Sequence record: OK283619.1
DNA: 64,000 bases
Source: Escherichia phage LPEK22
Strand: one strand, 5' to 3'
The notes under the pieces were generated by a model. That model was not told the DNA's origin, ran no database searches, and saw nothing but the letters and a program-made list of their open reading frames with translations. Position numbers and translations under genes: made by a program. Each line of letters begins with the position of its first letter. The stretch's first letter is position 1. Shown here one piece after another: positions 21,345 through 49,226 of this stretch.

Positions 21345-22151
21345 TTAAATGAAAATCTCGGTGACACTGTTAAATTTGACTTCGTGTTCTTTCCCACACG
21401 AAGGGCATTTAATTTTTGTCGCGTAACGAATACGCGGAATCTTTTTAAAGAAATCATTCGAAATGTCCTGAACAATCTCAGATTCAATATTGTCCCCGAC
21501 CCATTTGACAAATTCATCCTTAATGCGTTGGCGTTCTTTAGCAACTTCTGGATCGATACCAGGTTCAGCCGGATTTTCCACCTTCCAAACCTGACCATCG
21601 TCGTCATACAGACAATCGATAAAGGTGGCAATCATTTGTTCAACAGAGGATGCTTCATTAAGCACTGAGGCATCCGAGAAGGACGGCTGGCGCATCTTTA
21701 TATGATAACCACCTGGTAGATCAAACGTCTCCCTGAAGCCTTCTGGGGACACGCATTTTACCTGATTGAGCGGGATCGGTAACACAAGCTCTTGACCACA
21801 ATCTTTAAGGCCAGAAACTGGTTCTTCACCACCTTCATTGGTTTCGGCTTGAACTTTGTTATTACATTTGTAACGTATCTTCATGACCTCGCCGATAGAT
21901 ATACAGCGCATCTTTAAAAATACTTCTTCAGTAACACCGATTGGCAGTTTACTAAAGGGAACGCCAGCATCAACACAACTGTCAAATAGTTGCTCCAATG
22001 TTGCCACGCGCTCACTCATAGGAGTGTTCGGATCAGCAACCTGAAGTAACATGGTCTGTTGCCCTGCTGTAAAGGCGCGGTATTTGATCACAGTCGGCCA
22101 GAAATCACTTTTATGTGTTCTCTCAGTTTTGGGCAATGATGGTAAATTCAT
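21345..22151 (-). CDS. late-expressed hypothetical structural protein with C-terminal zinc ribbon (possibly baseplate-associated)
   Basis: Exact TATAAATA late-promoter box about 28 nt upstream of ATG plus GGAGA SD; C-terminal CPSCGKEH; adjacent to gp5-like gene. Confidence 0.5.
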   Translation of the reverse strand: MNLPSLPKTERTHKSDFWPTVIKYRAFTAGQQTMLLQVADPNTPMSERVATLEQLFDSCVDAGVPFSKLPIGVTEEVFLKMRCISIGEVMKIRYKCNNKVQAETNEGGEEPVSGLKDCGQELVLPIPLNQVKCVSPEGFRETFDLPGGYHIKMRQPSFSDASVLNEASSVEQMIATFIDCLYDDDGQVWKVENPAEPGIDPEVAKERQRIKDEFVKWVGDNIESEIVQDISNDFFKKIPRIRYATKIKCPSCGKEHEVKFNSVTEIFI

Positions 22152-22179
22152 AATGTATCTCCACGGTATATTGTAATTG

Positions 22180-22187
22180 TATTTATA
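22180..22187 (-). promoter_or_regulatory. T4-type late promoter box TATAAATA
   Basis: Exact TATAAATA on minus strand about 28 nt upstream of ATG of gene 21345..22151, with GGAGA SD between. Confidence 0.55.
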
Positions 22188-22200
22188 ACGAGGACTGAAA

Positions 22201-22725
22201 ATGCACGCGTTCTGTTTCAGTAAAGTGGGGGAGCAACTCGCAATTAATTATCCGGATGCAAACACGGACTTTTTTGTATTACTCACAGATTTTGCAAATA
22301 AATTGGGGATAAAGAATGTCGCCATGACCGTGTCCGATATGAAATTCGGGTGGCTGGGAGTTAAAGATTTATTGAATTATGGATTCAATGTGATTATCGT
22401 TGATCCAACGTACAGCCCAATTGACGAGGAAGATGTTATTCCAGTTTGGGTTCAACGAGACATAAACACTCTGGATAAGCATTATCCCGATTGTGTCATC
22501 ATTGGCGAATTAATACCGTATTTTCATAAACGTCGTCGCCTTGAAACAATTAAAAGTTATTTTCAAGATAATGATTGTGGATATAAAATGGATGTCCTTA
22601 CGAGCGGTTGGGTTGTGAAGAATACCACAGGCAATGCCGACCGAATTACTTCTCGTCTTTATGAATATGTTAAAGAACGGGATTATGAACTGGAGAACAA
22701 TAATGCCAAACGTAGAACGCGCTGA
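22201..22725 (+). CDS. hypothetical protein (174 aa)
   Basis: ORF with GAGGA SD. Confidence 0.45.
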   Translation: MHAFCFSKVGEQLAINYPDANTDFFVLLTDFANKLGIKNVAMTVSDMKFGWLGVKDLLNYGFNVIIVDPTYSPIDEEDVIPVWVQRDINTLDKHYPDCVIIGELIPYFHKRRRLETIKSYFQDNDCGYKMDVLTSGWVVKNTTGNADRITSRLYEYVKERDYELENNNAKRRTR

Positions 22726-23188
22726 TATTCAGCAGGTACAAGACGTCATCCTTCAACGCCTTCGCGCTGTGATCACAAATGAAAAGGGAGAAATTGCGCC
22801 AGGGTTTGAAGGCGCATTCGACGGTTTCGTTGCTGATGATCAGGGGAACCCCGTTGTACAAACGATCGCTGGCATGATTATGCTGAATAGCGAATTTATG
22901 GCTGATGGTAAAATCCATTATTCACCCAATCTCAGTGTTGACGGAGAATCTTTGGCTTCCGAAGTGGTTGATTTAACGGTTGCCGTTGGTGAGTTGGGTT
23001 ATGTTTTGATGGTTTGCACCGCGCATTATGTGGACGCCAACGGCCATGTGTCATATGGTGATGAAGCGCGGGGGATCAAACGTCATGTGGACACTTCTGC
23101 ATTACTGCAACAGATACGTCAGATGCAAGAAGAAATGGACTCCAAACCTCGCCTGATTTTACCGGAAAGCAAAATCGTCACCAGATAA
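22703..23188 (+). CDS. hypothetical protein (161 aa); start at internal ATG with GGAGA SD
   Basis: ORF overlapping upstream gene by 23 nt. Confidence 0.45.
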   Translation: MPNVERADIQQVQDVILQRLRAVITNEKGEIAPGFEGAFDGFVADDQGNPVVQTIAGMIMLNSEFMADGKIHYSPNLSVDGESLASEVVDLTVAVGELGYVLMVCTAHYVDANGHVSYGDEARGIKRHVDTSALLQQIRQMQEEMDSKPRLILPESKIVTR

Positions 23189-23237
23189 TCCGGTCTAAAT
23201 ACCCATAACACAATGAAACTTCGTTATGGGTATTTTT

Positions 23238-23837
23238 ATGAAATTTTGCGGAATCGACTATTCTTACGGCTGTCCAGCCATGTGCTTCTGGGACGACAAA
23301 GATCCTCTGGATTTTGATCATCTTCATTTCTATGCACATCATACCGTTGAGAAGCACTGTCGTCAAGTGCGACACAATATTCTTATTTTACGTCAACCCA
23401 AATATGAATCCCCCGAAGAACGGTTTTATAACATTTCCAAATGGGCTGAAGCCGTACTTCTTACAGAGAAGCCGGATTTCATCACCCTAGAAGGCTATGC
23501 TATGGGGAATTCAAAAAACTCCAACAACATATGCCAAACCGCCGAGAACACATCTCTATTGAAACAAGCGATGCGCCGTAACAATATGGAATTTCAGATT
23601 GTTACCCCGTCTTTTGTTAAGAAACATTTTTGTGGTAAAGGAAATGCCGACAAATTGGTCATGATAGATCACTTTGAGAAGCTGTTCAACGTTAAGATGC
23701 GCGGTATAATGGACATGTTGGATGTGAAGGATCCAAAGCCAATCGATGACCTCGTGGATTCGTTTGCAAATATGGTTTCTGGTCCTTACTTCATAGAAAA
23801 TTATCCTGATTTCAATAGAGGTGTAAGAAATGATTAA
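23238..23837 (+). CDS. RuvC-like Holliday junction resolvase (putative)
   Basis: N-terminus MKFCGIDYSYG (RuvC-like GIDxG), ITLEGYAMG, GKGNADKLVMID; start choice uncertain (23226 or 23238). Confidence 0.45.
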   Translation: MKFCGIDYSYGCPAMCFWDDKDPLDFDHLHFYAHHTVEKHCRQVRHNILILRQPKYESPEERFYNISKWAEAVLLTEKPDFITLEGYAMGNSKNSNNICQTAENTSLLKQAMRRNNMEFQIVTPSFVKKHFCGKGNADKLVMIDHFEKLFNVKMRGIMDMLDVKDPKPIDDLVDSFANMVSGPYFIENYPDFNRGVRND

Positions 23838-24126
23838 TTACTGGCTGCTGGCAGATATACTGCTTTTCGCCTTGCTGTTGATGACGGCGTTTGTTTGGAT
23901 TAAGGGATTCTTGACATTCCTTCATTCATTAAGTGCCATGGTATCTTTCTATGCGGTTTCGCCACATAGTGACGTCAATGTAAGAGCTGCAAATCAATCT
24001 GATATGTTGGCCGAATATGTTTTGCTGCGTGATAAAGCAAGCAGGATTGTCCTGTTTTCTACGCTGGTGGGAGCAGTTATTATATTTCTACGACACGTAT
24101 TGGAGGCGATTCATGCCGTTTTATGA
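23830..24126 (+). CDS. small membrane protein (98 aa)
   Basis: Hydrophobic segments LLADILLFALLLMTAFVWI and VLFSTLVGAVIIFL. Confidence 0.4.
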   Translation: MINYWLLADILLFALLLMTAFVWIKGFLTFLHSLSAMVSFYAVSPHSDVNVRAANQSDMLAEYVLLRDKASRIVLFSTLVGAVIIFLRHVLEAIHAVL

Positions 24127-24358
24127 TTATGCCTGTACAGGTTGTGGAAATTCGTTTAGTGCTCGAAAATCTTGTGCTGAACGTCATACACCTGAATTAG
24201 AGCCATGTTCTGAATGTGGCGGTGAAATAAAAATGATTATTGGAGCACCAAAGATCGTATCTGGTGTTCGTGGTCCTCAGTCCGCGCCTGATGGCTTCAA
24301 AGACGTTTTGCGTCATATTAAGAAGCAATCAGGGAAGGGGAATACAATCGATGTCTGA
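24113..24358 (+). CDS. FmdB-family zinc-ribbon protein
   Basis: MPFYDYACTGCGNSF...CSECGG pattern. Confidence 0.55.
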   Translation: MPFYDYACTGCGNSFSARKSCAERHTPELEPCSECGGEIKMIIGAPKIVSGVRGPQSAPDGFKDVLRHIKKQSGKGNTIDV

Positions 24359-24593
24359 TCAACAAATAGCACAAGTGCTCACACCAGATTCTTTTTCCGA
24401 ATTGGTGTTGATGAGAGCAAGCCAACGCAAGGAATCAATCCTTGAAACGATGGCCAGTGTTTGTGAAGAGTATGACATCGAAGAAGCAAAGGTCAAAAAA
24501 TTGATCACGCCTCCTCTTTTGTCAAGGCTAACAGCTGAATGTTCTGATGCTCGGTTGTTGAAGGGTGAATTGAAATCTAAAAAACTCATTTAA
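24351..24593 (+). CDS. hypothetical protein (80 aa)
   Basis: ORF, internal start with overlap to upstream gene. Confidence 0.4.
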   Translation: MSDQQIAQVLTPDSFSELVLMRASQRKESILETMASVCEEYDIEEAKVKKLITPPLLSRLTAECSDARLLKGELKSKKLI

Positions 24594-24602
24594 GGTTGTA
24601 AC

Positions 24603-24842
24603 ATGAGCAAAGAGCAAATCTATAAAATGTTGAAGGCGCAAGAGTATCTGCCAGGTTCTATCCGCTGGCGTCACGGTAGCCTCAATGAACATGCTGATGA
24701 TATGGATCGTGTACGTTACACGACGCCGGAAGGTAAATCCTATGTCATCGAATACCATACATTCTTGGAAGGACACAAAACCTTCTCGGATGTGTACGAC
24801 ATTATTGAAATAGACCCAGCAAAACAAATGATTGCGGGTTAA
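24603..24842 (+). CDS. hypothetical protein (79 aa)
   Basis: ORF. Confidence 0.4.
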   Translation: MSKEQIYKMLKAQEYLPGSIRWRHGSLNEHADDMDRVRYTTPEGKSYVIEYHTFLEGHKTFSDVYDIIEIDPAKQMIAG

Positions 24843-24938
24843 CTCAATAGCAAAACGCAGTATAATTACACCGTCGGAATAATTGACAAATACATTTACA
24901 GAATAGCCCGAAGGGGCGGATTATAGAGGAATATTAAA

Positions 24939-25976
24939 ATGGGTAATTTATTTGATCGTCTTAAACAATCTCGTGGCCAACAAGCCGAAGCTATGCAACA
25001 GCGACTCGCTCAGCAAGGCCAGCGTGTTGGTGGCGGTCGTGACCCACGCATCTGGAAGTGGACCTGGAATGATAAGGGTACTTCTGAAAACATCATTCGT
25101 TTCCTGTCGATCCCTTTGGTGGACATGAAGGCTAAAGAAGAAGGCACCATCCCTGAAGATGCTGTGTTAACTCCGTGTGCCATGATCATGAAACACGCAT
25201 TCCAGGGCGCTGGTGGTTGGTATATCGAAAACTCTCCTCAGACTTTCGGTAACGATGATCCTGTTCGTGACCATGACCGTCCTCTGTGGGCACAACAGAA
25301 AGAAACGAATGATGAAAAGCTGAAAACAGTTCTCAAAAAACGTCTGCCGGACACCAAATACTACGCCAACATCCTGGTGATCAAAGATGGCAACAATCCG
25401 GAAAACAACGGCAAGGTCTTCTTGCTTGAGTTCGGTAATGCCGTCAAGAAAATCCTGGATTCGGCTCAGAATCCTAAGTTCTCAACTGACCCTAAATTCG
25501 ACCCGTTCGATATGTGGGAAGGCGCGAACCTGATTCTGAACCTCTTTGGTGAAGAGAAAGAGTTCGGAAACTGGAAAGGTCTGGTGGCCAACTTCACCAA
25601 TGTGAAGTGGGATAGTCCGGCACCGCTGGGAACCGACGAATACATTGAAGAGATCTGGGAAAAAGAGCACAGCTTGTTTGAGTTCTTTAATCCGGCCAAC
25701 TTCAAATCGTACGAAGATCTGGAAAAACGTTTGCGCAAAGTTCTGGCCATCCCTGATAATCAGCCTCTGGTTGAAGGTGGTGCTTCTACTATGGCACATG
25801 CGCCTACCCAGTCTCAGGAACCCCAGCGCCCGACAGCGCAGGAAAGTCTGAACCAACAACAATCTCAGCCTTCTAATGCACAGCAATCTGTTCCAGCCAA
25901 TAATGGTGGTGCGGGTGCCGATGCGAAACAGACGGCTTCCATTGATGAGTTCGAGCAGTTCCTGAAGCAAGACTAA
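24939..25976 (+). CDS. single-stranded DNA-binding protein (T4 gp32-like)
   Basis: Collinear with T4 gp32 as recalled: IRFLSIPL, WYIENS, YYANILVIKD, PENNGKVF, DMWEGANLIL, SYEDLEKRLRKVL; acidic C-terminal tail; strong terminator downstream. Confidence 0.85.
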   Translation: MGNLFDRLKQSRGQQAEAMQQRLAQQGQRVGGGRDPRIWKWTWNDKGTSENIIRFLSIPLVDMKAKEEGTIPEDAVLTPCAMIMKHAFQGAGGWYIENSPQTFGNDDPVRDHDRPLWAQQKETNDEKLKTVLKKRLPDTKYYANILVIKDGNNPENNGKVFLLEFGNAVKKILDSAQNPKFSTDPKFDPFDMWEGANLILNLFGEEKEFGNWKGLVANFTNVKWDSPAPLGTDEYIEEIWEKEHSLFEFFNPANFKSYEDLEKRLRKVLAIPDNQPLVEGGASTMAHAPTQSQEPQRPTAQESLNQQQSQPSNAQQSVPANNGGAGADAKQTASIDEFEQFLKQD

Positions 25977-25984
25977 TTTCACTA

Positions 25985-26011
25985 AAGCCCCTTCGGGGGC
26001 TTTTTAGTTTT
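25985..26011 (+). terminator. strong rho-independent terminator after gp32 gene (likely bidirectional)
   Basis: AAGCCCC-TTCG-GGGGCTT followed by TTTTAGTTTTT. Confidence 0.75.
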
Positions 26012-26948
26012 TAACGACGTCCTGCAACAATCCGAGTAAACTACTCTTCTCAGACGCCGTCAGGTTATCATTGCCTAATATATCCCTCTGGATGCCGATA
26101 GAGATCCTTTCGAAGTCTGCCAGGCTGATACCCGCCAAATTATTTACAAGCTGATCGAGTTGCTTGTAGGCCAGTAGGGCTTCACCTGTAAAGTTTCCTT
26201 CCTTAATCTTTTTATACAGCTGTCCGGCTTTTGACGCTGCGGTTTCCCAATCTCCGGAAGCAAGAGCATCAGCAATGCCCAAAGGAAGAAAGTCGCTGGC
26301 GAGGCTGCGCGTTTCATATTCAGTCTCCGATAATACTTTATTGTAAGAGAACGATATATTGTACTGGTTAAATTGGTCGGCGGCACTTTTGTCTAGGTCG
26401 ATGGAACTGAAGTTAATAGGATGAGCCTCAGTCACATAAACGCGATGAACAACCTGATCTTCCGTATCCATCTGCTCTATACAAATGTCTGTAACGAAGT
26501 CTTCATAATAACCCATCTTGGTTGTGTATGGGTCGAATATCAGGTTCTTCCATTTGTCCATGACCGACTTTTCATAATAATCGTTGGCGAGGAGGAACGA
26601 CAACTCCAGATCAACGTTCGTCTTGTTATTTGGCATTTTAATGTGGTTGCCGTTGTTGGTCATGGGAGTAGTGTCAATCCCTGTACCAGGTAAAGATGCG
26701 ACCATACACATCATTTGTAAGGAACGAGACGTCTGGTTTGTCCCTCCAAAGAAAGCGTTTACAATACGGGCGCTTTGTTTGAACAGATCCCCAAATGATG
26801 AAGATGAAGGATATGCGTTCCCATCATTTGCTAGTGTTGCATTGGAATCAAATATTCCAGGCGGCAACGGAATTGTAACACGAAATCTGTTCTTGCGGGA
26901 AATACCCCGTTGAAGCAGTTGCGTTAGAAAATTGCGATAGTCTTCCAC
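26004..26948 (-). CDS. hypothetical protein; start uncertain (GTG at 26948 with GGAG SD proposed; ORF-track start at 27143 would overlap divergent gene)
   Basis: C-terminal two thirds look protein-like; N-terminal part of the track ORF is antisense to gene at 27003. Confidence 0.4.
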   Translation of the reverse strand: MEDYRNFLTQLLQRGISRKNRFRVTIPLPPGIFDSNATLANDGNAYPSSSSFGDLFKQSARIVNAFFGGTNQTSRSLQMMCMVASLPGTGIDTTPMTNNGNHIKMPNNKTNVDLELSFLLANDYYEKSVMDKWKNLIFDPYTTKMGYYEDFVTDICIEQMDTEDQVVHRVYVTEAHPINFSSIDLDKSAADQFNQYNISFSYNKVLSETEYETRSLASDFLPLGIADALASGDWETAASKAGQLYKKIKEGNFTGEALLAYKQLDQLVNNLAGISLADFERISIGIQRDILGNDNLTASEKSSLLGLLQDVVKN

Positions 26949-28993: not shown

Positions 28994-29953
28994 ATGTCCT
29001 ATATTCTTCATATCGAGTCCGGCCTGAAATTTGAAATTGATGGTAAAACCGCTGCTGATCTTCAAGCAGAAATCAAAGGTGCAGACCTTATCATCGGCAA
29101 CGTCACGTTACGCCGTATGATGGAAGGCGTCCTCCAGTCAGCCAATGGCTTTGAACTCATCGAAGGTCTGAGCCAGGAAGAGAAAGAAGAGACTCTCGAA
29201 GCTCTTGACCGCGCTGAAGCCGAAAAAGTTAAACCGACCGAAGATGCGGGGGTTAAACAGGGCGACGGTGAATCAAATCCGGTGATTGACGCCGAAGAAA
29301 CGGTTGGGCAACCTGTCGGTGATCAAAATTCCCAGACCGTCGAAGACGGTTCTCTTGAAGTCAACAAAGACGGTTCCATTTCCCTGGTAGTTGAAGGCGA
29401 AGAAGTTCTTGACGAAGAAGCGCAAGCCCGTGCTGAAGAAGTTCGCCGTCGTATGCTGGGCACAACCGTTGCTGAAGCAATCGCCGACGTTGAAAATCCG
29501 AAGGATGATCAGGCTTTAGCGAACGCGAAGGCGGTTCTGGCCAAGAAATCTTCTGAAATGCGCCCTGCATCTTCTACCGAAGAACGCAAGCGTCGTCATA
29601 ACAAGCGTGAAGAAATGGTTGAAGCGGCTCGCGCATCCAATTATGGTCCTATCCTGGCTGCGGTTGAATCAGGGGTTGTGCCTGGGGTTTATTTGAGCTA
29701 TGTGAATCCGGATATGCGCTGGTTCCAGTTCCCTGTTACCGAACTGGCAGATGAAGCCAATCCACACGCCCGCACCAATACTTATGTTGATCTGGCGCCA
29801 ATCGTTTCCGGCGGCTGGGGGTTCAGTCTGTATGTGAATGGTAAATCATTCACCAAACGCCAGAAAATCAAAGAAACCGATGCCGAATCTCTGGTGAAAG
29901 CAATCAATGAATGGTTGCCTCAGGCGTTGGCCGAAGCGAAAGCTGCTGCGTAA
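28994..29953 (+). CDS. acidic hypothetical protein (319 aa)
   Basis: ORF downstream of TTTAC-N17-TATATT promoter; Glu/Asp-rich central region. Confidence 0.5.
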   Translation: MSYILHIESGLKFEIDGKTAADLQAEIKGADLIIGNVTLRRMMEGVLQSANGFELIEGLSQEEKEETLEALDRAEAEKVKPTEDAGVKQGDGESNPVIDAEETVGQPVGDQNSQTVEDGSLEVNKDGSISLVVEGEEVLDEEAQARAEEVRRRMLGTTVAEAIADVENPKDDQALANAKAVLAKKSSEMRPASSTEERKRRHNKREEMVEAARASNYGPILAAVESGVVPGVYLSYVNPDMRWFQFPVTELADEANPHARTNTYVDLAPIVSGGWGFSLYVNGKSFTKRQKIKETDAESLVKAINEWLPQALAEAKAAA

Positions 29954-29974: not shown

Positions 29975-30008
29975 AGATAAAGGGGCTGCTATAATAGCAG
30001 CTCCTTTT
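29975..30008 (+). terminator. hairpin with TATAAT in loop, terminator-like
   Basis: GCTGCT-ATAAT-AGCAGC followed by TCCTTTTGTTTG. Confidence 0.45.
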
Positions 30009-30010
30009 GT

Positions 30011-30688
30011 TTGTTGGAGCATGTCATGTCTTATTCGCTCAAAGGGCTGTTGAAGCGCCCTGTGCATTTGTTTGTCAAACCACCTGCTGTAGAAGGGGAA
30101 TATTCGGCACGAGGAGAGTTGTATTACATTAAAGGCTCCAATGGTAGTGGTAAGTCTACTGTGCCTTCTTATTTGGCGGAGAATGATCCTCAGGCGTATG
30201 TCGTAACCCATAACAGTAAGATCATGCTCACGGTTTGTCCATCTTACAATATTGTCTGTGTCGGTAAATATGACAAGTCTAAGTCCAAAGGGGTTGATTC
30301 TCTGAAGGATACTGAGCAGATGTTGTTCGCGTTGTCTATTGCTGACCAACCAGAATACCTGAAATATGATGTGATTTTCGAAGGCATCATTCCGTCTACA
30401 TTATTGAGTTCTTGGATTCCCCGCCTGACACGCCCACCACGTGAATTGGTCGTCCTCTTTATGGATACCCCTCTTGAAACCTGTATTGCCCGTGTTAAAT
30501 CGCGTAACGGTGGCGCAGACTTCAATGAAAGTCTGGTGGTCGAGAAGTGGGAGAGAGTTCATGATCACCGTCAACGGCATAAAGGCTTGTTCCCTACCGT
30601 TCCCGCAGGTATGATGAAGTCCGATGGCCTGACTGTAGAGCAGGCTGTTTTTGCGTTTCTCAATCGTGATTTTGGGAGTATTTATTGA
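30011..30688 (+). CDS. P-loop NTPase, putative nucleotide or nucleic-acid kinase
   Basis: Walker A GSNGSGKST; first gene of ATGA-coupled operon with TS-fold enzyme and dNMP kinase; start may be 30011 or 30026. Confidence 0.55.
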   Translation: MLEHVMSYSLKGLLKRPVHLFVKPPAVEGEYSARGELYYIKGSNGSGKSTVPSYLAENDPQAYVVTHNSKIMLTVCPSYNIVCVGKYDKSKSKGVDSLKDTEQMLFALSIADQPEYLKYDVIFEGIIPSTLLSSWIPRLTRPPRELVVLFMDTPLETCIARVKSRNGGADFNESLVVEKWERVHDHRQRHKGLFPTVPAGMMKSDGLTVEQAVFAFLNRDFGSIY

Positions 30689-31734
30689 TGGAAATCAAAG
30701 CAATTAACAACAACGACATGCTGAAACAGGCTGTCTTGGCTATCCGTGAGCACGGGATTGAATCTGACCCTGGTAACGCGGAGATCAACACAGACGGCAC
30801 TCGTTTTATTGATGGCGTGACGATCACCGTCTCTGACATCCGCGACCGTTGGCTGTCTGTTGAAGGACGCAACTCATCGGCTATTGCTGCCATCGGCGAG
30901 ACCTTCTGGGTTCTGTCTGGGCGCGATGATGTGCGCTTCTTGTCCCGTGTCCTCCCTCGCGCCGCCAACTTCTCTGATAATGGCCATACATGGCGAGCCG
31001 CTTATGGTCCGCGTCTGTACGCCCATGGCCAGCTGGATAGCGTTATCAACCGCCTACGCAAGAACCCAAATACTCGTCAAGCGTACCTCACCATCTATGA
31101 TCCGGCTCTAGATTCGGATGCTGGTCTGGCGAAGTTCAGCGAGAGCGGCGAAGCAAAGACTAAGGACATGGTGTGTAACCTGGCTCTGTTGTTCGCCATC
31201 GTTGAAGGTCGTCTGAACCTGACGGTCATCAACCGCTCACAGGATGTTCTGTGGGGGATGAGTTCAATCAACTTCATTGAGTTCTCTATTCTTCAGGAAG
31301 TGATTGCTCAGGTGTTAGATGTTGATGTCGGTCAGTACAAGCTATTCTCTAACAATCTTCATTACTACAACAATGAAGTCAGCCAGAAGCAGCTTGGCAA
31401 GATCACCAAAGACACAAAAGTCACTGGTGGTTTCATCAACTCCATGATCTACTTCACGAACGTGACCAACCAGAACCATATCCGCAATCTGTTCACTGGT
31501 GTGCTTCATCACTGTGATATCGGCAGCCCGTGGGAAACTGTTGTCGCTCACCTGAAGGAGTACGGCGCGGATCGCGGCCTGATCGTGCAGATGGCGTACT
31601 GCCTGTACTGCAAACTGAACGACAAGCTCATCAACATGAACCTGATTCAGGATCATGGTTTGAACATCGCGCTCGCTCATTCTCCGATTGACCGCAAGAT
31701 CGTTGATCCCAAGTTCTTGGAAGGTGCAGTATGA
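30685..31734 (+). CDS. thymidylate-synthase-superfamily enzyme, divergent: putative pyrimidine (dUMP/dCMP) hydroxymethylase
   Basis: Collinear with TS / dCMP hydroxymethylase core as recalled: ETFWVLSG, NPNTRQAYLTIYDP (versus NPxSRR..SAWNP), Cys in DMVCNLALLF (versus PCH), RSQDVLWGMSSINFIEFS (versus RSxDxxLGxPFNIASY); 349 aa with N-terminal extension. Confidence 0.65.
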   Translation: MMEIKAINNNDMLKQAVLAIREHGIESDPGNAEINTDGTRFIDGVTITVSDIRDRWLSVEGRNSSAIAAIGETFWVLSGRDDVRFLSRVLPRAANFSDNGHTWRAAYGPRLYAHGQLDSVINRLRKNPNTRQAYLTIYDPALDSDAGLAKFSESGEAKTKDMVCNLALLFAIVEGRLNLTVINRSQDVLWGMSSINFIEFSILQEVIAQVLDVDVGQYKLFSNNLHYYNNEVSQKQLGKITKDTKVTGGFINSMIYFTNVTNQNHIRNLFTGVLHHCDIGSPWETVVAHLKEYGADRGLIVQMAYCLYCKLNDKLINMNLIQDHGLNIALAHSPIDRKIVDPKFLEGAV

Positions 31735-32300
31735 TGTATCCGAACCTTGAATTCTTTACGGGGCGCAAGCGCTCCGGCAAGGACTTCTGTTTGGAGTCCC
31801 TCATCAGCTATCACCATTTACAGGGTGATATGGACATCCAGCGCTTATCTTTCTCGGACGAGTTGCGTCGGGTGGCTCATTACATCTATCCTTGGTTGCC
31901 AGAGGAAGTAGAGGACGATATCAAGGACTTGCCATATGTTCACCCAGATAACCCCAAGGGATTAACCCCAAGGCAGATCTGGCTTCATCTCGGCAGCGAT
32001 ACGGGGCTTCGTTATGTCCAACCGGATCTGTTTTTGTCTTTCTTTAAGCGTTACCAACTCCCATTAGTTGAACAGAATCCTAACATTCATTATATTGTGA
32101 GTGATCTACGGACGCCTCAAGAATATGAATGGGCGCTGAGCACTAAATGTCCCATCACCCGCATTTCAAAGGCAGATCGCGGCGGTATCATAGAGGACGA
32201 CATAGAGGCTTTCATTGATGAGATGAAAGTTGATTATGAATTTGTTAACCCATTTGAAGGTTGGCAACCATTCGTCAAATTTTATAGGGAACGGAAATGA
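31731..32300 (+). CDS. deoxynucleoside monophosphate kinase (T4 gp1-like)
   Basis: P-loop FFTGRKRSGKDF (T4 gp1 recalled as FLSGVKRSGKDT) and IVSDLRTPQEYE. Confidence 0.65.
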   Translation: MMYPNLEFFTGRKRSGKDFCLESLISYHHLQGDMDIQRLSFSDELRRVAHYIYPWLPEEVEDDIKDLPYVHPDNPKGLTPRQIWLHLGSDTGLRYVQPDLFLSFFKRYQLPLVEQNPNIHYIVSDLRTPQEYEWALSTKCPITRISKADRGGIIEDDIEAFIDEMKVDYEFVNPFEGWQPFVKFYRERK

Positions 32301-32848
32301 TCACAGCAGAGCATATCAAAAGTCTGCTCGAACTTCAAAAGGCCACCAACGTGGCCTATTTTGGGGAAGAGTGGCGTAAACATTGGACTCATGTGGCGGT
32401 GGTGAACTCCATCTATCGTGAGTGGGCAGAGTTTCTTGACGAAACAACCCAGGACTGGAAAATCTATGGCGGTGGGATACAATATGACCGAGAAGCAGCT
32501 GTCTACGAATTGGTGGACGTGGTACATTTTATGTTGTCTTCCATTTTATCTGGATTTGGTTCTGCTTTCCCAGTTGAAATGCAGATTGACCTTTTCTTCA
32601 AGGACGGACGAGTGATAGACAAATCGGCCAATCTGGAATCGGTCACAGAATGTTTTACGTCATTTATGGTTCAACCAGATGTTATCCGTTTTGTGCGGTT
32701 TTTATCAAAGGCTTGTGGTTATTTGGATCTGGACACCGAAACCTATATGCTGGCCCACAAGCGCAAGAACGATCGCAATCGTCTACGTGCTGCTGGCGGT
32801 GCGAACTATGACAAGTCTGCCGAAACCCCTCTGACTCTGGAGTTCTAA
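32297..32848 (+). CDS. all-alpha NTP pyrophosphatase (T4 gp56 dCTPase/dUTPase-like)
   Basis: Acidic motifs EEWRKHWTH, EWAEFLDE, ELVDVVHFML resembling dimeric dUTPase/dCTPase family. Confidence 0.5.
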   Translation: MITAEHIKSLLELQKATNVAYFGEEWRKHWTHVAVVNSIYREWAEFLDETTQDWKIYGGGIQYDREAAVYELVDVVHFMLSSILSGFGSAFPVEMQIDLFFKDGRVIDKSANLESVTECFTSFMVQPDVIRFVRFLSKACGYLDLDTETYMLAHKRKNDRNRLRAAGGANYDKSAETPLTLEF

Positions 32849-33378
32849 TGTTTACAGTTGTCGTATCATATTATGCGGAACATGCCCCGTACATGGCAGA
32901 GAACTTCGCTGAGTTTATTAAACCAGGCGGTCATGTCGTTATTGCGACCAATTTCAAGAAAGAGCCAGATGGTGCGGCTACTGTAACACAACATATTACA
33001 ACCAAAGAGCCGGAAACACTTTTTAAACGCATTGAAGATTTTGCTTTTGGCGGGGAAGAAATTCCAGAGTCATTACAGCATATCTATTTTGAAGATGCGA
33101 TATATTATGTTCATGCTATTCCAAAGGATGTTACAACTGAACAAATGATGTATATCCTGAATATCGCATTGAATGTTTCTTGTGTCAACAGGGCACAGCA
33201 CAATCGTCTGCGTAATATGTATTTAACAGAACGCGGGGGTTCCGAAATTAACGATGAAAAACTCCCGTCAATAATGGCGATTCACGAAGCAATCAATATA
33301 TTGTCCAAGAAAGTCTTGGGCACCGATTTATTAATTACGATCAACAAGCAAGAGGAAACGAAATGGCCGATTCATTGA
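32848..33378 (+). CDS. hypothetical protein (176 aa)
   Basis: ORF coupled within nucleotide-metabolism operon. Confidence 0.45.
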   Translation: MFTVVVSYYAEHAPYMAENFAEFIKPGGHVVIATNFKKEPDGAATVTQHITTKEPETLFKRIEDFAFGGEEIPESLQHIYFEDAIYYVHAIPKDVTTEQMMYILNIALNVSCVNRAQHNRLRNMYLTERGGSEINDEKLPSIMAIHEAINILSKKVLGTDLLITINKQEETKWPIH

Positions 33379-34448
33379 TGGCTCGCATGCTCAAGACAGC
33401 AAAGAAACTGGACCCGAATGCCGAAGTGCTGTCAAAGACCGATGCGCTGAAGCCTGACATTATTTGCAGTACGGGTATTCCTATTCTGAATTTGGCCTGG
33501 TCCGGTCGTATTGATGGTGGTCTGATATCAGGCATCAAACAGTTGGTGGGGGATTCTCGTACATTCAAAACCATGTTTGGGCTGGTGGATGTTAAGGCTT
33601 ACATGGATAAGTTTCCTGATGCAATTTGTATCTTCGCGGATTCAGAAGGCGGTGCGAATGAAAACTACTGGACATCTATGGGTATTGACATGGACCGTGT
33701 CTTGTATCTGCCGATTGAAAACGTTGAAAAGACGAAGATCAAGCTGACACAGCTTCTGAACGATGCACAGAAAGGTGACAAGATCATCGTATTCATTGAC
33801 TCAATCAGCCAGTTGCCGTCTACCAAAGAAGTTGATGATGCCATAGCGGGCAAAGACACACAAGATATGACCCGCGCTCGCGCTCTCAATAGTTTTTGGC
33901 GTGTTATCACCCCGTTGGTCACTGAAAAGAAATTCGTTTTGGTATGGATCAACTCGTACTATGATGAAATCGGGAACCAATACGCCGAGCCGAACATCAA
34001 AGGCGGTAAACAGGGGTTCCTGTCTTCTAACCAATTGTGGTTCATCACGCGTTCTCAAGTTAAAGAAGACAAAGACCTTTTGGGATGGCAGTTTACAGTC
34101 AACATTATGAAAGGCCGCTTTGTCCGTGAAAAAGCCAAGTTCCCTGTCACTGTGTTGTATGAAGGCGGTATTGACCGTTGGTCCGGTATGTTAGAAATTG
34201 CGCGCATGCTGGGGTATGTGGATTTGGTGAGTGGCTCTTGGTATCAACGCACTGCCAAAGGCGGGTTTGATCCAGAAAAAGAAAAGAAATATCGTAAGGC
34301 AGAGCTGGGGGATGACTTCTGGTATCCGCTGCTGGAAAACCCAGACTTTGTTGACGATGTGAACAACATGTTCGGTATCTCTCAGAGTTCGGTTATGCCT
34401 GCAGATATGCTGGAGCGCCTCGATAATGTCATCAAAACAACCGAGTAA
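33363..34448 (+). CDS. uvsX: UvsX recombinase (RecA-like)
   Basis: Collinear with T4 UvsX as recalled: ILNLAWSGRIDGG, GDSRTFKTMFGL, VFIDSISQLPSTKEVDDA, DMTRARALNSFWR, GGIDRWSGMLE. Confidence 0.85.
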   Translation: MADSLMARMLKTAKKLDPNAEVLSKTDALKPDIICSTGIPILNLAWSGRIDGGLISGIKQLVGDSRTFKTMFGLVDVKAYMDKFPDAICIFADSEGGANENYWTSMGIDMDRVLYLPIENVEKTKIKLTQLLNDAQKGDKIIVFIDSISQLPSTKEVDDAIAGKDTQDMTRARALNSFWRVITPLVTEKKFVLVWINSYYDEIGNQYAEPNIKGGKQGFLSSNQLWFITRSQVKEDKDLLGWQFTVNIMKGRFVREKAKFPVTVLYEGGIDRWSGMLEIARMLGYVDLVSGSWYQRTAKGGFDPEKEKKYRKAELGDDFWYPLLENPDFVDDVNNMFGISQSSVMPADMLERLDNVIKTTE

Positions 34449-34755
34449 TATTGCAGGGGGAGGAGACTCCCCCGTTAATTACAAAATCATCGACCCTGGT
34501 TCTGATCAGTTAGCAATAATCGAAATAACGGAAGGCAAATTCCGTGGCGTTCAATTTCGTATAGGGAAAGTGGGTGTCCATTTAGATAATGGAGAGCCTC
34601 GGTTATCCTTTACAACAGATATATTGAAGAAACCATGGCGTTTGTTATTTGTTAATTTGAAAGAAAATGACTTGTTCACTGTGGTGTCTGGGGATATCTT
34701 AGTTGATCTGATACAGCAAAATGCTCAGGATTACAACAAAATTTTGGTGGGGTAG
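34426..34755 (+). CDS. hypothetical protein (109 aa) between uvsX and helicase gene
   Basis: ORF. Confidence 0.45.
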   Translation: MSSKQPSNIAGGGDSPVNYKIIDPGSDQLAIIEITEGKFRGVQFRIGKVGVHLDNGEPRLSFTTDILKKPWRLLFVNLKENDLFTVVSGDILVDLIQQNAQDYNKILVG

Positions 34756-36186
34756 TTGCCAATGTTACTCGAATCTGTCGTGCTTTCCCAATTAATCTAT
34801 AACGAAGAATATCAAAGAAAGATCCAGCCGTATTTGAAAGCCGATTATTTCGATAACGAAGGCGAGAAAATTATATTCGGTCTCATTGACCATTACACTT
34901 GCGAATATAATGCTCGTCCTTCGGTTGAAGCGTTGTCTATTATGCTGGAAAAGACTTCGCTCAACGAACACGTATTTGAACAAGCTATTTCTGCTCTTGA
35001 GAATATCAATGACAACACATTCCATCAGGAATGGCTTGTAAAAGAAACAGAAAGTTGGGCGCGGCAGAAAGCTGTTCATAATGCGATCAAACACGCCGTC
35101 AACATCTATGGTGATGAGAAACGTAAAGATGAGATGAACACGATTCCAACTCTCCTACAAGAGGCGTTGGCGATAAGTTTTGATTCTTATCTTGGCCATA
35201 TCTATTGGGAAATGGCTGAACAACAATACGACCACATGAACTCTAATGAAGCGAAGATTCCTTTCGCTGTAGAGATATTCAACAAAGCGACTCGTGGTGG
35301 TGTTGGTAAGAAAACGCTGAACATCGTGACGGGTGCAATTAATGCGGGTAAGACAACAACTCTGATTGATTTGGCTGCTGGTTACTCCGAGCAAGGGTTG
35401 AACGTATTCGTATTCACCCTAGAAGTGGCTGAGAACGTCTGGCGTCACCGCCTTGATGCCCGTATGATGCGCAGGGACTTCGAGTCCTTAGAGAAGCTCT
35501 CACGACATGAATATGTCGCCACGATACAAAAGTTGCGAACTCGTCAAGACGGTTCCATGAAGGGTGATATTGTTATCAAGGAATATCCTTCAGGCGCTGG
35601 GCATACAGGACTATATCGCCGCGATATCCTTGATTATGCGACATCCACGGGAATTACGCCGGACGTCATTATTATAGACTACTTGGGTGAATCAGCGTCT
35701 TCTCGCCTTCCTGCCCATTTAATGCAGAACACCAACGTGTATTATACGTCGGTGGCGCGTGAATTCCGTGCGCTTGGATTTGAATTTGATTGCCCTGTAT
35801 GGACAGGTATGCAATTTAACCGTGAAAAACAATCGGCGACTGATGGTGATATTAGCGACCTGGCAGATGCTATCGGTATTCCGAAGGTTGCAGACTTCAT
35901 CATGGCGTTCTATGCCCCTGATGAACTGGCGGCTGTTAAGAAAGCCCGAGCGTCTATCTTGAAAAACCGTTATGCCAATAAACAGAAACTCAAATCGTTC
36001 TTGTTCGGTATGGATCAAGATAAACAGATATTGTTTGACTTGGATTGGAATGAAGTCAAGCGAGACCTGACAGAAGAGGAAGCCCGTTATGTTGAGAATG
36101 TTCATATCAAACATGACTTAAACAAAACAGGCGACGTAAATGATGTCAAGAAAGCCGAGACCGTGAATAATTGGAATTTCGGTTAA
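34756..36186 (+). CDS. replicative DNA helicase (T4 gp41, DnaB-like)
   Basis: Walker A GAINAGKTT; EWLVKETE and ALAISFDSYLGH parallel T4 gp41 as recalled; 476 aa. Confidence 0.85.
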   Translation: MPMLLESVVLSQLIYNEEYQRKIQPYLKADYFDNEGEKIIFGLIDHYTCEYNARPSVEALSIMLEKTSLNEHVFEQAISALENINDNTFHQEWLVKETESWARQKAVHNAIKHAVNIYGDEKRKDEMNTIPTLLQEALAISFDSYLGHIYWEMAEQQYDHMNSNEAKIPFAVEIFNKATRGGVGKKTLNIVTGAINAGKTTTLIDLAAGYSEQGLNVFVFTLEVAENVWRHRLDARMMRRDFESLEKLSRHEYVATIQKLRTRQDGSMKGDIVIKEYPSGAGHTGLYRRDILDYATSTGITPDVIIIDYLGESASSRLPAHLMQNTNVYYTSVAREFRALGFEFDCPVWTGMQFNREKQSATDGDISDLADAIGIPKVADFIMAFYAPDELAAVKKARASILKNRYANKQKLKSFLFGMDQDKQILFDLDWNEVKRDLTEEEARYVENVHIKHDLNKTGDVNDVKKAETVNNWNFG

Positions 36187-48698: not shown

Positions 48699-49226
48699 TT
48701 AATTCCTTACTTTGTCTGGGTTGGATAAGATTTGTTCGTATCCGACTTCGCCTTGATCGTCGAAAACGTGTTTAAGGATCGCCATATCGTCTACCATCCG
48801 ATAAACTTCAATTCCAGCGTTCATCAATTTTTTGATTCCATCCATGATACGATATGGCTCTTGATAATATACTTTATCGATCTTGCCGTTGTCGATGATC
48901 TTCTGAGTGCAATCAGGGCATGGGCTATGTGTCACAAACATAACCAACCCTGTGAAATCATCTGCATTTTCGGGGATACGCATTAGAGCATTTTCCTCCG
49001 CATGAATGACACACGGGTTTGTAACAATTTGCCCGTGTTGTTCCATCTCACAAACATTCGGCATGCCAGGAGGCGTTCCGTTCCATCCGATAGCCACAGG
49101 CTGATCAGTTTCAGGGTTTACGATAACACAACCGACTTGCAGACGCCGAGCATAACTGGTTACACCATATGCTGCAGCTGATCGCATATGGGCGAACATC
49201 ATACGTGGTTTAATCATTTTTAACAC
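48699..49226 (-). CDS. dCMP deaminase
   Basis: Zinc-binding HAEENAL and SPCPDC motifs. Confidence 0.8.
   Translation of the reverse strand: MLKMIKPRMMFAHMRSAAAYGVTSYARRLQVGCVIVNPETDQPVAIGWNGTPPGMPNVCEMEQHGQIVTNPCVIHAEENALMRIPENADDFTGLVMFVTHSPCPDCTQKIIDNGKIDKVYYQEPYRIMDGIKKLMNAGIEVYRMVDDMAILKHVFDDQGEVGYEQILSNPDKVRN

Follow-up and report, generated by a model that had tools for sequence, protein, structure and literature searches.

A coupled operon of Escherichia phage LPEK22 as the predicted front end of a ViI-type thymidine-hypermodification pathway

We analyze a run of coupled genes in Escherichia phage LPEK22 (sequence record OK283619.1), contained in a 64,000-nt stretch of its DNA, hereafter the window, and read it with high confidence as a Kuttervirus operon that encodes the front end of ViI-type thymidine hypermodification, with 5-(2-aminoethoxy)methyl-dU (5-NeOmdU) as its expected product. 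A first-pass annotation, made from the sequence alone, had proposed a dedicated pathway for a non-canonical pyrimidine, and that proposal coincides with the known ViI-type thymidine hypermodification, already published for this phage group in 2011, 2018 and 2021. For close orthologues, the kinase, serine-transfer and decarboxylation reactions have been shown, as has 5-NeOmdU itself in virion DNA; for LPEK22, we infer what the hydroxymethylase, the dNMP kinase and the NTP pyrophosphatase (NTPase) act on, as well as any role of an ACT-like protein.

Direct reading of the window recovered five open reading frames (ORF) on the plus strand, between positions 30026 and 33378, with the coordinates and the ATGA or 1-nt overlaps that the first-pass annotation had assigned to them. 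The kinase and thymidylate-synthase-like (TS-like) genes meet at TGATG, overlapping by 1 nt at 30688; ATGA is shared by the TS-like and dNMP kinase genes (31731-31734) and by the dNMP kinase and NTPase genes (32297-32300); and the NTPase gene meets a 176-aa ORF at TAATG, with a 1-nt overlap at 32848. A purine-rich, Shine-Dalgarno-like stretch lies 5′ of every junction among the five genes. Further overlaps join the 176-aa ORF to uvsX (16 nt) and uvsX to a 109-aa ORF (23 nt) that abuts the gp41 gene, and the coupled run, as judged from these boundaries, extends downstream through all three. UvsX recombinase (33363-34448, plus strand) matches Pfam RecA and T4_UVSX_C; the 109-aa ORF (34426-34755, plus strand) maps to phrog_3998, a family with no function assigned, and occupies the position of T4 gene 40, with no similarity to T4 gp40 detectable by direct comparison; and a gp41-type replicative helicase (34762-36186, plus strand; Pfam DnaB_C), 97.5% identical to ViI Gp41, closes the coupled block. 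Its upstream limit is a predicted terminator, a strong terminator-like hairpin on the plus strand (29979-30007) with 13 pairs, TATAAT in the loop and a T-rich run after it, which ends 18 nt 5′ of the kinase ATG; Klebsiella phage Magnus has an annotated terminator at the equivalent position.

The same gene order occurs in 266 phage records and is common to the three genera inspected directly (Kuttervirus ViI, Limestonevirus Coodle and Taipeivirus Magnus), and because of this recurrence we regard the arrangement as non-random. Placement next to uvsX is not a novelty: T4 gene 42 also lies just 5′ of uvsX-40-41, and this adjacency of the TS-fold gene is inherited synteny.

The first gene (30026-30688, plus strand; 220 aa) is, judging by sequence and position, a 5-hydroxymethyl-dU (5-hmdU) DNA kinase (5-HMUDK) and the syntenic orthologue of ViI gp67 (YP_004327432). 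Its likely start is the ATG at 30026, with GGAG 7 nt upstream, in agreement with the equivalent start in the public annotation of phage kage; the mechanical ORF call begins at a TTG at 30011. The translation matches Pfam PF18748 at full length (E 2.4e-113; 376.8 bits against a cut-off of 27), with residues 14-209 spanning positions 1-196 of the 196-position profile, and shares 94.5% amino acid identity over 219 aa with ViI gp67, which is Vi01_061c and occupies the same operon position. The Walker A motif already noted, GSNGSGKST, lies at residues 37-45. In vitro, ViI gp67 acts on DNA that contains 5-hmdU and phosphorylates its hydroxymethyl group (PMC8989533), and between the two roles first offered for this extra kinase, action on the modified nucleotide or on the hydroxymethyl group in DNA, the family match and the orthology favor the latter. 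The partners expected alongside such a kinase are a dUMP hydroxymethylase, predicted here from the adjacent gene, and an aGPT-Pplase acting on 5-PmdU, with aGPT-Pplases present in a phage of the same species, SFP10 (82% and 92% identity).

The second gene (30688-31734, plus strand) encodes a 348-aa TS-fold enzyme that matches PF00303 (59.3 bits against a cut-off of 24.3) and phrog_3676 (7e-185), and which we read as a putative dUMP hydroxymethylase converting dUMP and methylene-THF into 5-hmdUMP. Alignments identify E71, Y106, C163, R183, S184, D186, N195, H225 and Y227 as conserved residues, and the catalytic Cys163, together with E71, Y106, H225 and Y227, is invariant across two homologue alignments. 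The base-specificity position is occupied by Asn195, which all 30 homologues compared (28-94% identity) share, and corresponds to E. coli N177 (in an alignment that needs a 1-residue loop insertion), T4 D179 and MilA D186, while Arg130 and Ser184 align with MilA K133 and A176. According to the specificity rules put forward for the superfamily, Asn denotes uracil and Asp cytosine, whereas Arg/Ser denote deoxyribose and Lys/Ala ribose (PMC5175136). The AlphaFold2 (AF2) model (pLDDT 93.7) matches both TS and MilA structures at probability 1.00, covering MilA at full length with a TMq of 0.74, against 0.53 for canonical TS, and its C-terminal helical domain is of the MilA type. Neither equivalents of E. 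coli W80 and W83 nor the folate-closing C-terminal tail of TS were seen in the alignment or the model, and all NCBIfam thymidylate synthase models were missed (at most 56 bits against cut-offs of 108-427). The enzyme falls in phrog_3676/5131, the Yuavirus type, whereas T4 gp42 falls in phrog_160; dUMP hydroxymethyltransferase-type proteins of Yuavirus are its nearest relatives outside its own family, with 27% identity in alignment against 22% for E. coli ThyA. A published phylogeny (PMC3184105) likewise places the ViI-like TS-type enzyme nearer to those of hmU phages than to canonical ThyA. The initial guess of a hydroxymethylase-like TS fold is thus borne out by the dUMP-type residue pattern and by the hydroxymethylase architecture of the MilA match.

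The next two products had been likened to T4 gp1 and gp56, and both fall in the PHROG families of those proteins. The dNMP kinase (31731-32300, plus strand; 189 aa) matches phrog_139 with E 7.6e-49, a family that T4 gp1 matches at 1.8e-65. The motif first picked out, RKRSGKDF, lies at residues 12-19, within a P-loop (residues 11-18) that reads GRKRSGKD here and GVKRSGKD in T4 gp1; direct similarity to T4 gp1 is weak (blastp E 0.008 over 21 aa). By analogy, its probable substrate is 5-hmdUMP, which it would convert into 5-hmdUDP, an assignment made on the basis of the pathway logic in PMC8989533 and PMC3184105. The fourth product (32297-32848, plus strand; 183 aa) is an all-alpha NTP pyrophosphatase of the dimeric dUTPase/T4 gp56 type, matching PF08761 (31.6 bits against a cut-off of 22.9) and phrog_173 (6.9e-38), the family of T4 gp56, and its metal-binding motifs E42xxE45 and E71xxD74 align with C. 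jejuni dUTPase. We predict it to be a dUTPase/dTTPase that would exclude dTTP and dUTP and supply dUMP, a specificity assigned by analogy because phage CBA120 does not incorporate 3H-thymidine (PMC3184105). The same study proposed a dTTPase role for the ViI-like NTPase, for which we found no enzyme assay in the literature consulted; in those papers, the hydroxymethylase, dNMP kinase and NTPase of ViI-like phages are assigned by homology and physiology rather than by enzyme assay.

The fifth product (32848-33378, plus strand), initially an unknown 176-aa protein, is present as described and can be refined to an ACT-like protein restricted to Ackermannviridae, always encoded between the NTPase gene and uvsX and coupled to both by the overlaps given above. 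The defining features of an ACT domain are taken here to be a beta-alpha-beta-beta-alpha-beta fold and binding of a small-molecule ligand where the subunits of a dimer meet; the C-terminal half of this protein is modelled poorly. We consider it a speculative and unlikely proposition that the ACT-like protein is a ligand-sensing partner of the nucleotide-modification enzymes, which might tune 5-hmdU synthesis or modification by binding, for example, a pyrimidine nucleotide or serine, from which the side chain comes, and, separately, that exchange of hydroxymethylase and NTPase alleles reflects selection by host defenses. If true, ligand sensing could bear on the partial extent of modification (about 16-40% of T), and genus-level allele swaps could come from host defenses that sense the hydroxymethylase and the NTPase.

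The window shares 97.9-100% nucleotide identity with Kuttervirus phages SFP10, S117 and kage, and is assigned on this identity to a Kuttervirus of their type. Relative to ViI, the TS-like (77%), NTPase (69%) and UvsX (72%) alleles are far more diverged than their neighbors (91-99%). The TS-like allele is of the Limestonevirus type (94.8% amino acid identity to Dickeya phage Coodle; GC 0.51), and the hydroxymethylase and NTPase alleles appear to be swapped between genera inside an otherwise conserved operon. Outside the operon, the window encodes a dCMP deaminase on the minus strand (48699-49217; Pfam PF00383, 5e-17) that is identical (100%) to the putative deoxycytidylate deaminase of kage and belongs to an enzyme class with a described role in the pre-replicative hmU pathway (PMC8989533). 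A search of the 64-kb window for the later enzymes (serine transferase, PLP decarboxylase, second kinase and aGPT-Pplases) returned none of them. Since the closest public genomes carry them, these enzymes are probably present elsewhere in the LPEK22 genome: SFP10 has orthologues of ViI gp160, gp226, gp243 and gp247 (82-93% amino acid identity), with gp160 at 82%, and the gp247 serine transferase and gp226 decarboxylase at 92-93%. In ViI, CBA120 and CBA6, 5-NeOmdU replaces about 40% of T (PMC5889632), and in a Taipeivirus it accounts for 16% of T (bioRxiv 10.64898/2026.05.19.726188). Table 1 of PMC5889632 names SFP10 among the phages that encode 5-HMUDK.

In the pathway that we propose, the TS-fold enzyme would act before replication to turn dUMP, drawn from the phage dCMP deaminase (48.7-49.2 kb) and the NTPase, into 5-hmdUMP. 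The gp1-family kinase would then yield 5-hmdUDP, and host NDP kinase 5-hmdUTP, while the gp56-family pyrophosphatase would clear dUTP and probably dTTP too. As a result of 5-hmdUTP supply and dUTP/dTTP removal, the phage polymerase would insert 5-hmdU instead of T. After replication, 5-HMUDK would convert some of the 5-hmdU residues in DNA, by phosphorylation of their hydroxymethyl group, into 5-PmdU, on which a gp247-type serine:DNA transferase and then a gp226-type PLP decarboxylase, both encoded outside the window, would act to form O-serinyl-T and finally 5-NeOmdU, a base that blocks many restriction enzymes.

Two alternative readings place the operon in a different chemistry. The cluster could simply raise dTTP for canonical DNA if its products were an ordinary thymidylate synthase, a dUTPase with a house-keeping role and either a thymidylate/guanylate kinase or a terminase small subunit, as suggested by the labels in public records and PHROG, where thymidylate synthase, dUTPase and, for phrog_800, terminase small subunit are given, and by conservation of the TS fold and catalytic residues in the second product. 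We judge this extremely unlikely, given the full-length 376.8-bit match of the kinase to a 5-hmdU DNA kinase family in which its orthologue has that very activity, and a TS-like protein that scores far under every NCBIfam thymidylate synthase cut-off, has neither the W80/W83 equivalents nor the TS tail and ends in a MilA-type helical domain. Moreover, CBA120 incorporates no thymidine (PMC3184105) and ViI-like virion DNA contains 5-NeOmdU (PMC5889632), so that dTTP supply is already contradicted by kinase family, TS-like features, physiology and DNA chemistry; as for the first gene, Vi01 carries a separate small terminase adjoining TerL. A T4-like route, in which dCMP hydroxymethylase and dCTPase generate hydroxymethyl-C DNA, could invoke the cytidylate hydroxymethylase MilA as the top solved-structure match, the PHROG family shared with the T4 dCTPase gp56 and the matching position of T4 gene 42, yet its probability is close to nil. 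The invariant Asn195 is that of TS and SPO1 dUMP hydroxymethylase, not the Asp of the T4 enzyme and MilA; a phage-encoded dCMP deaminase would oppose a dCMP route; CBA120 has no hmC substitution (PMC3184105); the additional nucleoside of ViI-like DNA derives from thymidine (PMC5889632); and the first gene encodes a 5-hmdU-specific DNA kinase. The initial analogy with T4 points to cytosine, but the modified base is thymine/uracil.

A third reading keeps the pathway and changes its outcome, with the SFP10-type lineage ending, for instance, in unmodified 5-hmdU or in a different side chain. Divergence from ViI in the TS-like protein, the NTPase and the aGPT-Pplase gp160 of SFP10 would allow for this, as would the differing extent of modification among genera (about 40% versus 16%), and we found no LC-MS in the literature consulted for SFP10-type phages specifically. 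Nevertheless, the transferase and decarboxylase that set the side chain are the enzymes at 92-93% identity between SFP10 and ViI, 5-NeOmdU is found in both Kuttervirus and the far more distant Taipeivirus, and the authors of PMC5889632 predict it for all the ViI-like phages they list, SFP10 included, making a different end product very improbable. We hence retain 5-NeOmdU as the expected product.

These assignments have consequences for annotation, since public records widely mislabel the kinase as terminase small subunit and the hydroxymethylase as thymidylate synthase, and should be corrected. With 5-NeOmdU, Ackermannviridae DNA resists most type II restriction enzymes, a resistance relevant to the use of Kuttervirus phages in therapy and biocontrol, and to the sequencing and cloning of their DNA.

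Among known systems, the ViI (Vi01) operon Vi01_061c-057c (5-HMUDK, thyA-like, dnk, dUTPase and unknown), located 5′ of uvsX and gp41, is identical to that of the window in gene order and overlaps, with orthologues that are 69-95% identical, and its downstream enzymes also occur in the SFP10 species. The same pre-replicative hmU logic is found in the Bacillus phages SPO1, SP8 and phi-e, and in phiW-14, SP10, M6 and YuA; hmU phages combine dCMP deaminase, a TS-homologue dUMP hydroxymethylase, dNMP kinase and removal of dTTP/dUTP before incorporation of 5-hmdU (PMC8989533). Their enzymes are only 30-38% identical to those of the window, the Yuavirus enzyme representing the closest TS-type family outside Ackermannviridae, and their end products (hmU itself, putrescinyl-T, glutamyl-T or 5-NedU) are unlike that of ViI. 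In the one Yuavirus locus inspected (S218), neither the ACT-like gene nor linkage to uvsX/gp41 was seen. T4 shares with the window the strategy of excluding a canonical dNTP through gp42, gp1 and gp56, and the map position of gene 42, but its base is cytosine (Asp179) rather than uracil/thymine (Asn195), pairwise protein similarity is limited to short motifs, genes 56, 42 and 1 lie at 16, 25 and 75 kb, and its post-replicative step is glucosylation instead of phosphorylation followed by amino-acid transfer. Finally, MilA, the CMP 5-hydroxymethylase of Streptomyces rimofaciens (PDB 5b6d, 5jnh), is the best solved-structure match of the TS-fold enzyme by sequence (E 5.5e-17) and by fold; the two are about 20% identical, and MilA performs hydroxymethylase chemistry on a TS core, as predicted for the window enzyme, with Lys133, Ala176 and Asp186 making MilA ribo- and cytosine-specific, and Arg130, Ser184 and Asn195 pointing to a deoxy-, uracil-type enzyme in LPEK22.

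The ORF listing and the junction sequences bear out the first-pass description of 30011-33378 as five consecutive, translationally coupled genes on the plus strand. These encode a 5-hmdU DNA kinase (gene 1), a thymidylate synthase (TS)-like enzyme (gene 2), a gp1-family dNMP kinase (gene 3), a gp56-family NTPase (gene 4) and a 176-aa ACT-like protein (gene 5). Successive genes meet on that strand at TGATG (30686-30690, genes 1 and 2), at ATGA (31731-31734, genes 2 and 3; 32297-32300, genes 3 and 4) and at TAATG (32846-32850, genes 4 and 5), with a purine-rich ribosome-binding stretch 5′ of all four junctions. The true start of gene 1 is most likely the ATG at 30026, which has GGAG upstream, rather than the TTG at 30011, and the public annotation of phage kage uses the same start. 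Coupling extends beyond 33378 through a 16-nt overlap between gene 5 and uvsX and a 23-nt overlap between uvsX and a 109-aa ORF (orf109), which in turn adjoins the gp41 helicase gene ending at 36186.

On its 5′ side the coupled block is divided from an upstream gene by a 13-pair hairpin (29979-30007), followed by a T-rich run, whose 3′ end lies 18 nt before the kinase ATG; a terminator is annotated at the equivalent position in Klebsiella phage Magnus. The upstream gene (28994-29953) encodes a 319-aa protein of phrog_3905 with an acidic, low-complexity middle and no Pfam match. A sigma-70 promoter scan returned no convincing candidate for the operon, and the TATAAT in the hairpin loop is not accompanied by a good -35 element. 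Transcription might proceed by read-through, from a promoter lying within the hairpin itself, or from a phage-specific promoter.

Gene 1 matches the Pfam family PF18748, '5-hmdU DNA kinase', over its full length (E 2.4e-113, 376.8 bits against a cut-off of 27). Its orthologue at the same position in Salmonella phage ViI (94.5% identity) is Vi01_061c, also known as YP_004327432 or 'orf00067', and YP_004327432 is listed as ViI gp67 by Lee et al. 2021 (PMC8989533). Like ViI gp243, M6 gp54 and others, ViI gp67 is reported to phosphorylate 5-hmdU in DNA with the gamma-phosphate of ATP (PMC8989533). No solved structure related to this kinase by sequence was found in the PDB, and the PDB sequence searches with the dNMP kinase and the ACT-like protein were equally uninformative. 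PHROG (phrog_800) and many RefSeq and GenBank records give the gene 1 family the name 'terminase small subunit', and elsewhere it appears as 'thymidylate kinase' or 'polynucleotide kinase'. Vi01_061c (L002:8204-8866) is one example. The terminase label is wrong and represents a propagated misannotation, since the small terminase of Vi01 is encoded by a different gene, adjoining TerL.

The product of gene 2 scores above the Pfam thymidylate-synthase threshold, yet falls far under every NCBIfam thymidylate synthase cut-off. We aligned it with its ViI counterpart, a Yuavirus 'deoxyuridylate hydroxymethyltransferase', the T4 hydroxymethylase gp42, E. coli ThyA and, from HMMER output, MilA, the CMP 5-hydroxymethylase of Streptomyces rimofaciens. 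The catalytic set is kept in these alignments (Glu71, Tyr106, Cys163, Arg183, Ser184, Asp186, His225 and Tyr227), and nothing in gene 2 corresponds to E. coli Trp80 and Trp83. Residue rules for ribose or deoxyribose and for base specificity have been set out for MilA (PMC5175136). Arg130 and Ser184, where MilA has Lys and Ala, indicate that the substrate would carry deoxyribose; Asn195, where T4 gp42 and MilA have Asp, indicates that its base would be uracil. All 30 homologues compared, at 28-94% identity, keep Asn195.

An AlphaFold model of gene 2 (me1129b5e2be9), built from a homologue alignment with a pLDDT of 93.7, aligns with MilA from end to end, C-terminal helical domain included (TMq 0.74), and with canonical TS over a core of ~240 residues only (TMq about 0.53). 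In the model this MilA-like domain spans residues ~260-345, and, judged by length, it is also present in the Yuavirus enzyme. MilA and the T4 hydroxymethylase are without the C-terminal tail of TS, which leaves an open folate site (PMC5175136). Among the solved structures in the PDB copy searched, none was of a phage dUMP hydroxymethylase. In PHROG, gene 2 belongs to phrog_3676, beside the Yuavirus family phrog_5131, and T4 gp42 to phrog_160. The phylogeny of Kutter et al. 2011 groups the 'TS' of CBA120, ViI and AG3 with enzymes of hydroxymethyluracil (hmU) phages, and the same study reports no 3H-thymidine incorporation by CBA120 (PMC3184105). A search of the window found neither a second, canonical ThyA nor a paralogue of any operon gene. 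We read gene 2 as a putative dUMP hydroxymethylase, whose product would be 5-hmdUMP.

Genes 3 and 4 had been termed gp1-like and gp56-like, terms that hold only at the level of protein families. BLASTP and phmmer comparisons of the window proteins with T4 gp42, gp1, gp56 and gp40 gave motif-level matches only, so family membership was established through PHROG profiles. Gene 3 (189 aa) falls in phrog_139 (7.6e-49) together with T4 gp1 (1.8e-65), with which it shares a GxKRSGKD P-loop; gene 4 (183 aa) joins T4 gp56 in phrog_173, scores above the cut-off for PF08761 (dimeric dUTPase family) and carries the metal-binding motifs ExxE (residues 42-45) and ExxD (residues 71-74). The roles of the dNMP kinase and the pyrophosphatase have been described for hmU phages (PMC8989533), and roles of this type were proposed for CBA120 in 2011 (PMC3184105). 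By analogy, we propose the same roles here: the gene 3 kinase would phosphorylate 5-hmdUMP, and the gene 4 pyrophosphatase would remove dUTP and probably also dTTP.

Gene 5 matches PF24021, 'Phage ACT-like domain'. Its family spans 273 phage records, essentially all from Ackermannviridae, and always occupies the gap between the NTPase gene and uvsX. AlphaFold confidently predicts a beta-alpha-beta-beta-alpha-beta arrangement for residues 1-95 and models the helical C-terminal half poorly; a search of BFVD returned relatives only from Ackermannviridae. The other groups of thymidine-hypermodifying phages that were examined lack the gene, so its product is unlikely to be one of the core enzymes of the pathway.

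Taken together, these assignments support the first-pass proposal of a dedicated pathway to a non-canonical pyrimidine, with an additional kinase as a candidate for acting on the modified nucleotide or on DNA. The pathway is not new: it has been described in print for the SFP10 species group itself. Its product, 5-(2-aminoethoxy)methyl-dU (5-NeOmdU), takes the place of about 40% of T in ViI, CBA120 and CBA6 (PMC5889632) and of 16% in a Taipeivirus (2026 preprint, bioRxiv 10.64898/2026.05.19.726188). SFP10 (NC_016073) is named as a 5-HMUDK-encoding phage in Table 1 of PMC5889632, and 5-NeOmdU is predicted for all ViI-like phages of that table. The modification has been reconstituted on 5-hmdU DNA by five ViI proteins; gp247 and gp226 have been characterised as purified enzymes (PMC8989533). 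By tblastn, the window contains no homologue of ViI gp160 (aGPT-Pplase1), gp226 (PLP decarboxylase), gp243 (second kinase) or gp247 (serine:DNA transferase); all four are present in SFP10 at 82-93% identity, and in the source phage they presumably lie elsewhere in the genome. Genes assigned to dUMP supply lie within the window, namely a dCMP deaminase (48699-49217, minus strand) and NrdA, NrdB and glutaredoxin (13.9-17.6 kb).

By megablast, the window belongs to a Kuttervirus (Ackermannviridae) of the SFP10 species type. Against kage, S8, S117, BPS5/6 and SFP10, the operon region is 99.9-100% identical and its flanks 97.9-99.4%. The same gene order occurs in 266 phage records, and was inspected directly in ViI, Limestonevirus Coodle and Taipeivirus Magnus. 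Anomalies were noted in three records (OR844944.1, MN871475.1 and OQ660437.1), those of 'Enterococcus phage Efm 3-10', 'Pseudomonas phage Pa-sanjiao' and Salmonella phage D5lw. The first (38.5 kb) and second are probably mislabelled or contaminated, because they carry sequence 98-100% identical to the window Kuttervirus; in D5lw an HNH homing endonuclease is inserted inside the operon.

The operon is mosaic, and amino acid identity to ViI varies from gene to gene along the block: 99% for the upstream 319-aa protein (only 57-69% in other genera), 94.5% for the kinase, 76.8% for the TS-like enzyme, 91% for the dNMP kinase, 95.5% for the ACT-like protein, 95.4% for orf109 and 97.5% for gp41, with 68.9% for the NTPase, which evolves fast in all comparisons made (60-69%), and 72.5% for UvsX, of which the ViI copy is an outlier. 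With Dickeya phage Coodle, the TS-like allele shares 94.8% identity but the ACT-like protein of the same operon only 58%. GC content of the TS-like gene is 0.51, against a window mean of 0.449, and is 0.449 in the ViI allele and 0.52 in that of Coodle. This pattern is consistent with a hydroxymethylase allele replaced by that of an Ackermannviridae lineage with higher GC, and suggests allele exchange between genera within a translationally coupled operon.

The corresponding T4 enzymes had been described as scattered, fairly so, with genes 56, 42 and 1 at about 16, 25 and 75 kb. The T4 order 42 - beta-gt - segA - uvsX - 40 - 41 (T4 22049-26219) nevertheless parallels 30688-36186 of the window, and the location of a hydroxymethylase with the TS fold ahead of uvsX and gene 41 is therefore synteny shared with T4. 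Within this arrangement orf109 takes the position of T4 gene 40, with no detectable sequence similarity to gp40, and what is added in the window lineage is the siting of a DNA kinase, a dNMP kinase, an NTPase and an ACT-like gene around the hydroxymethylase.
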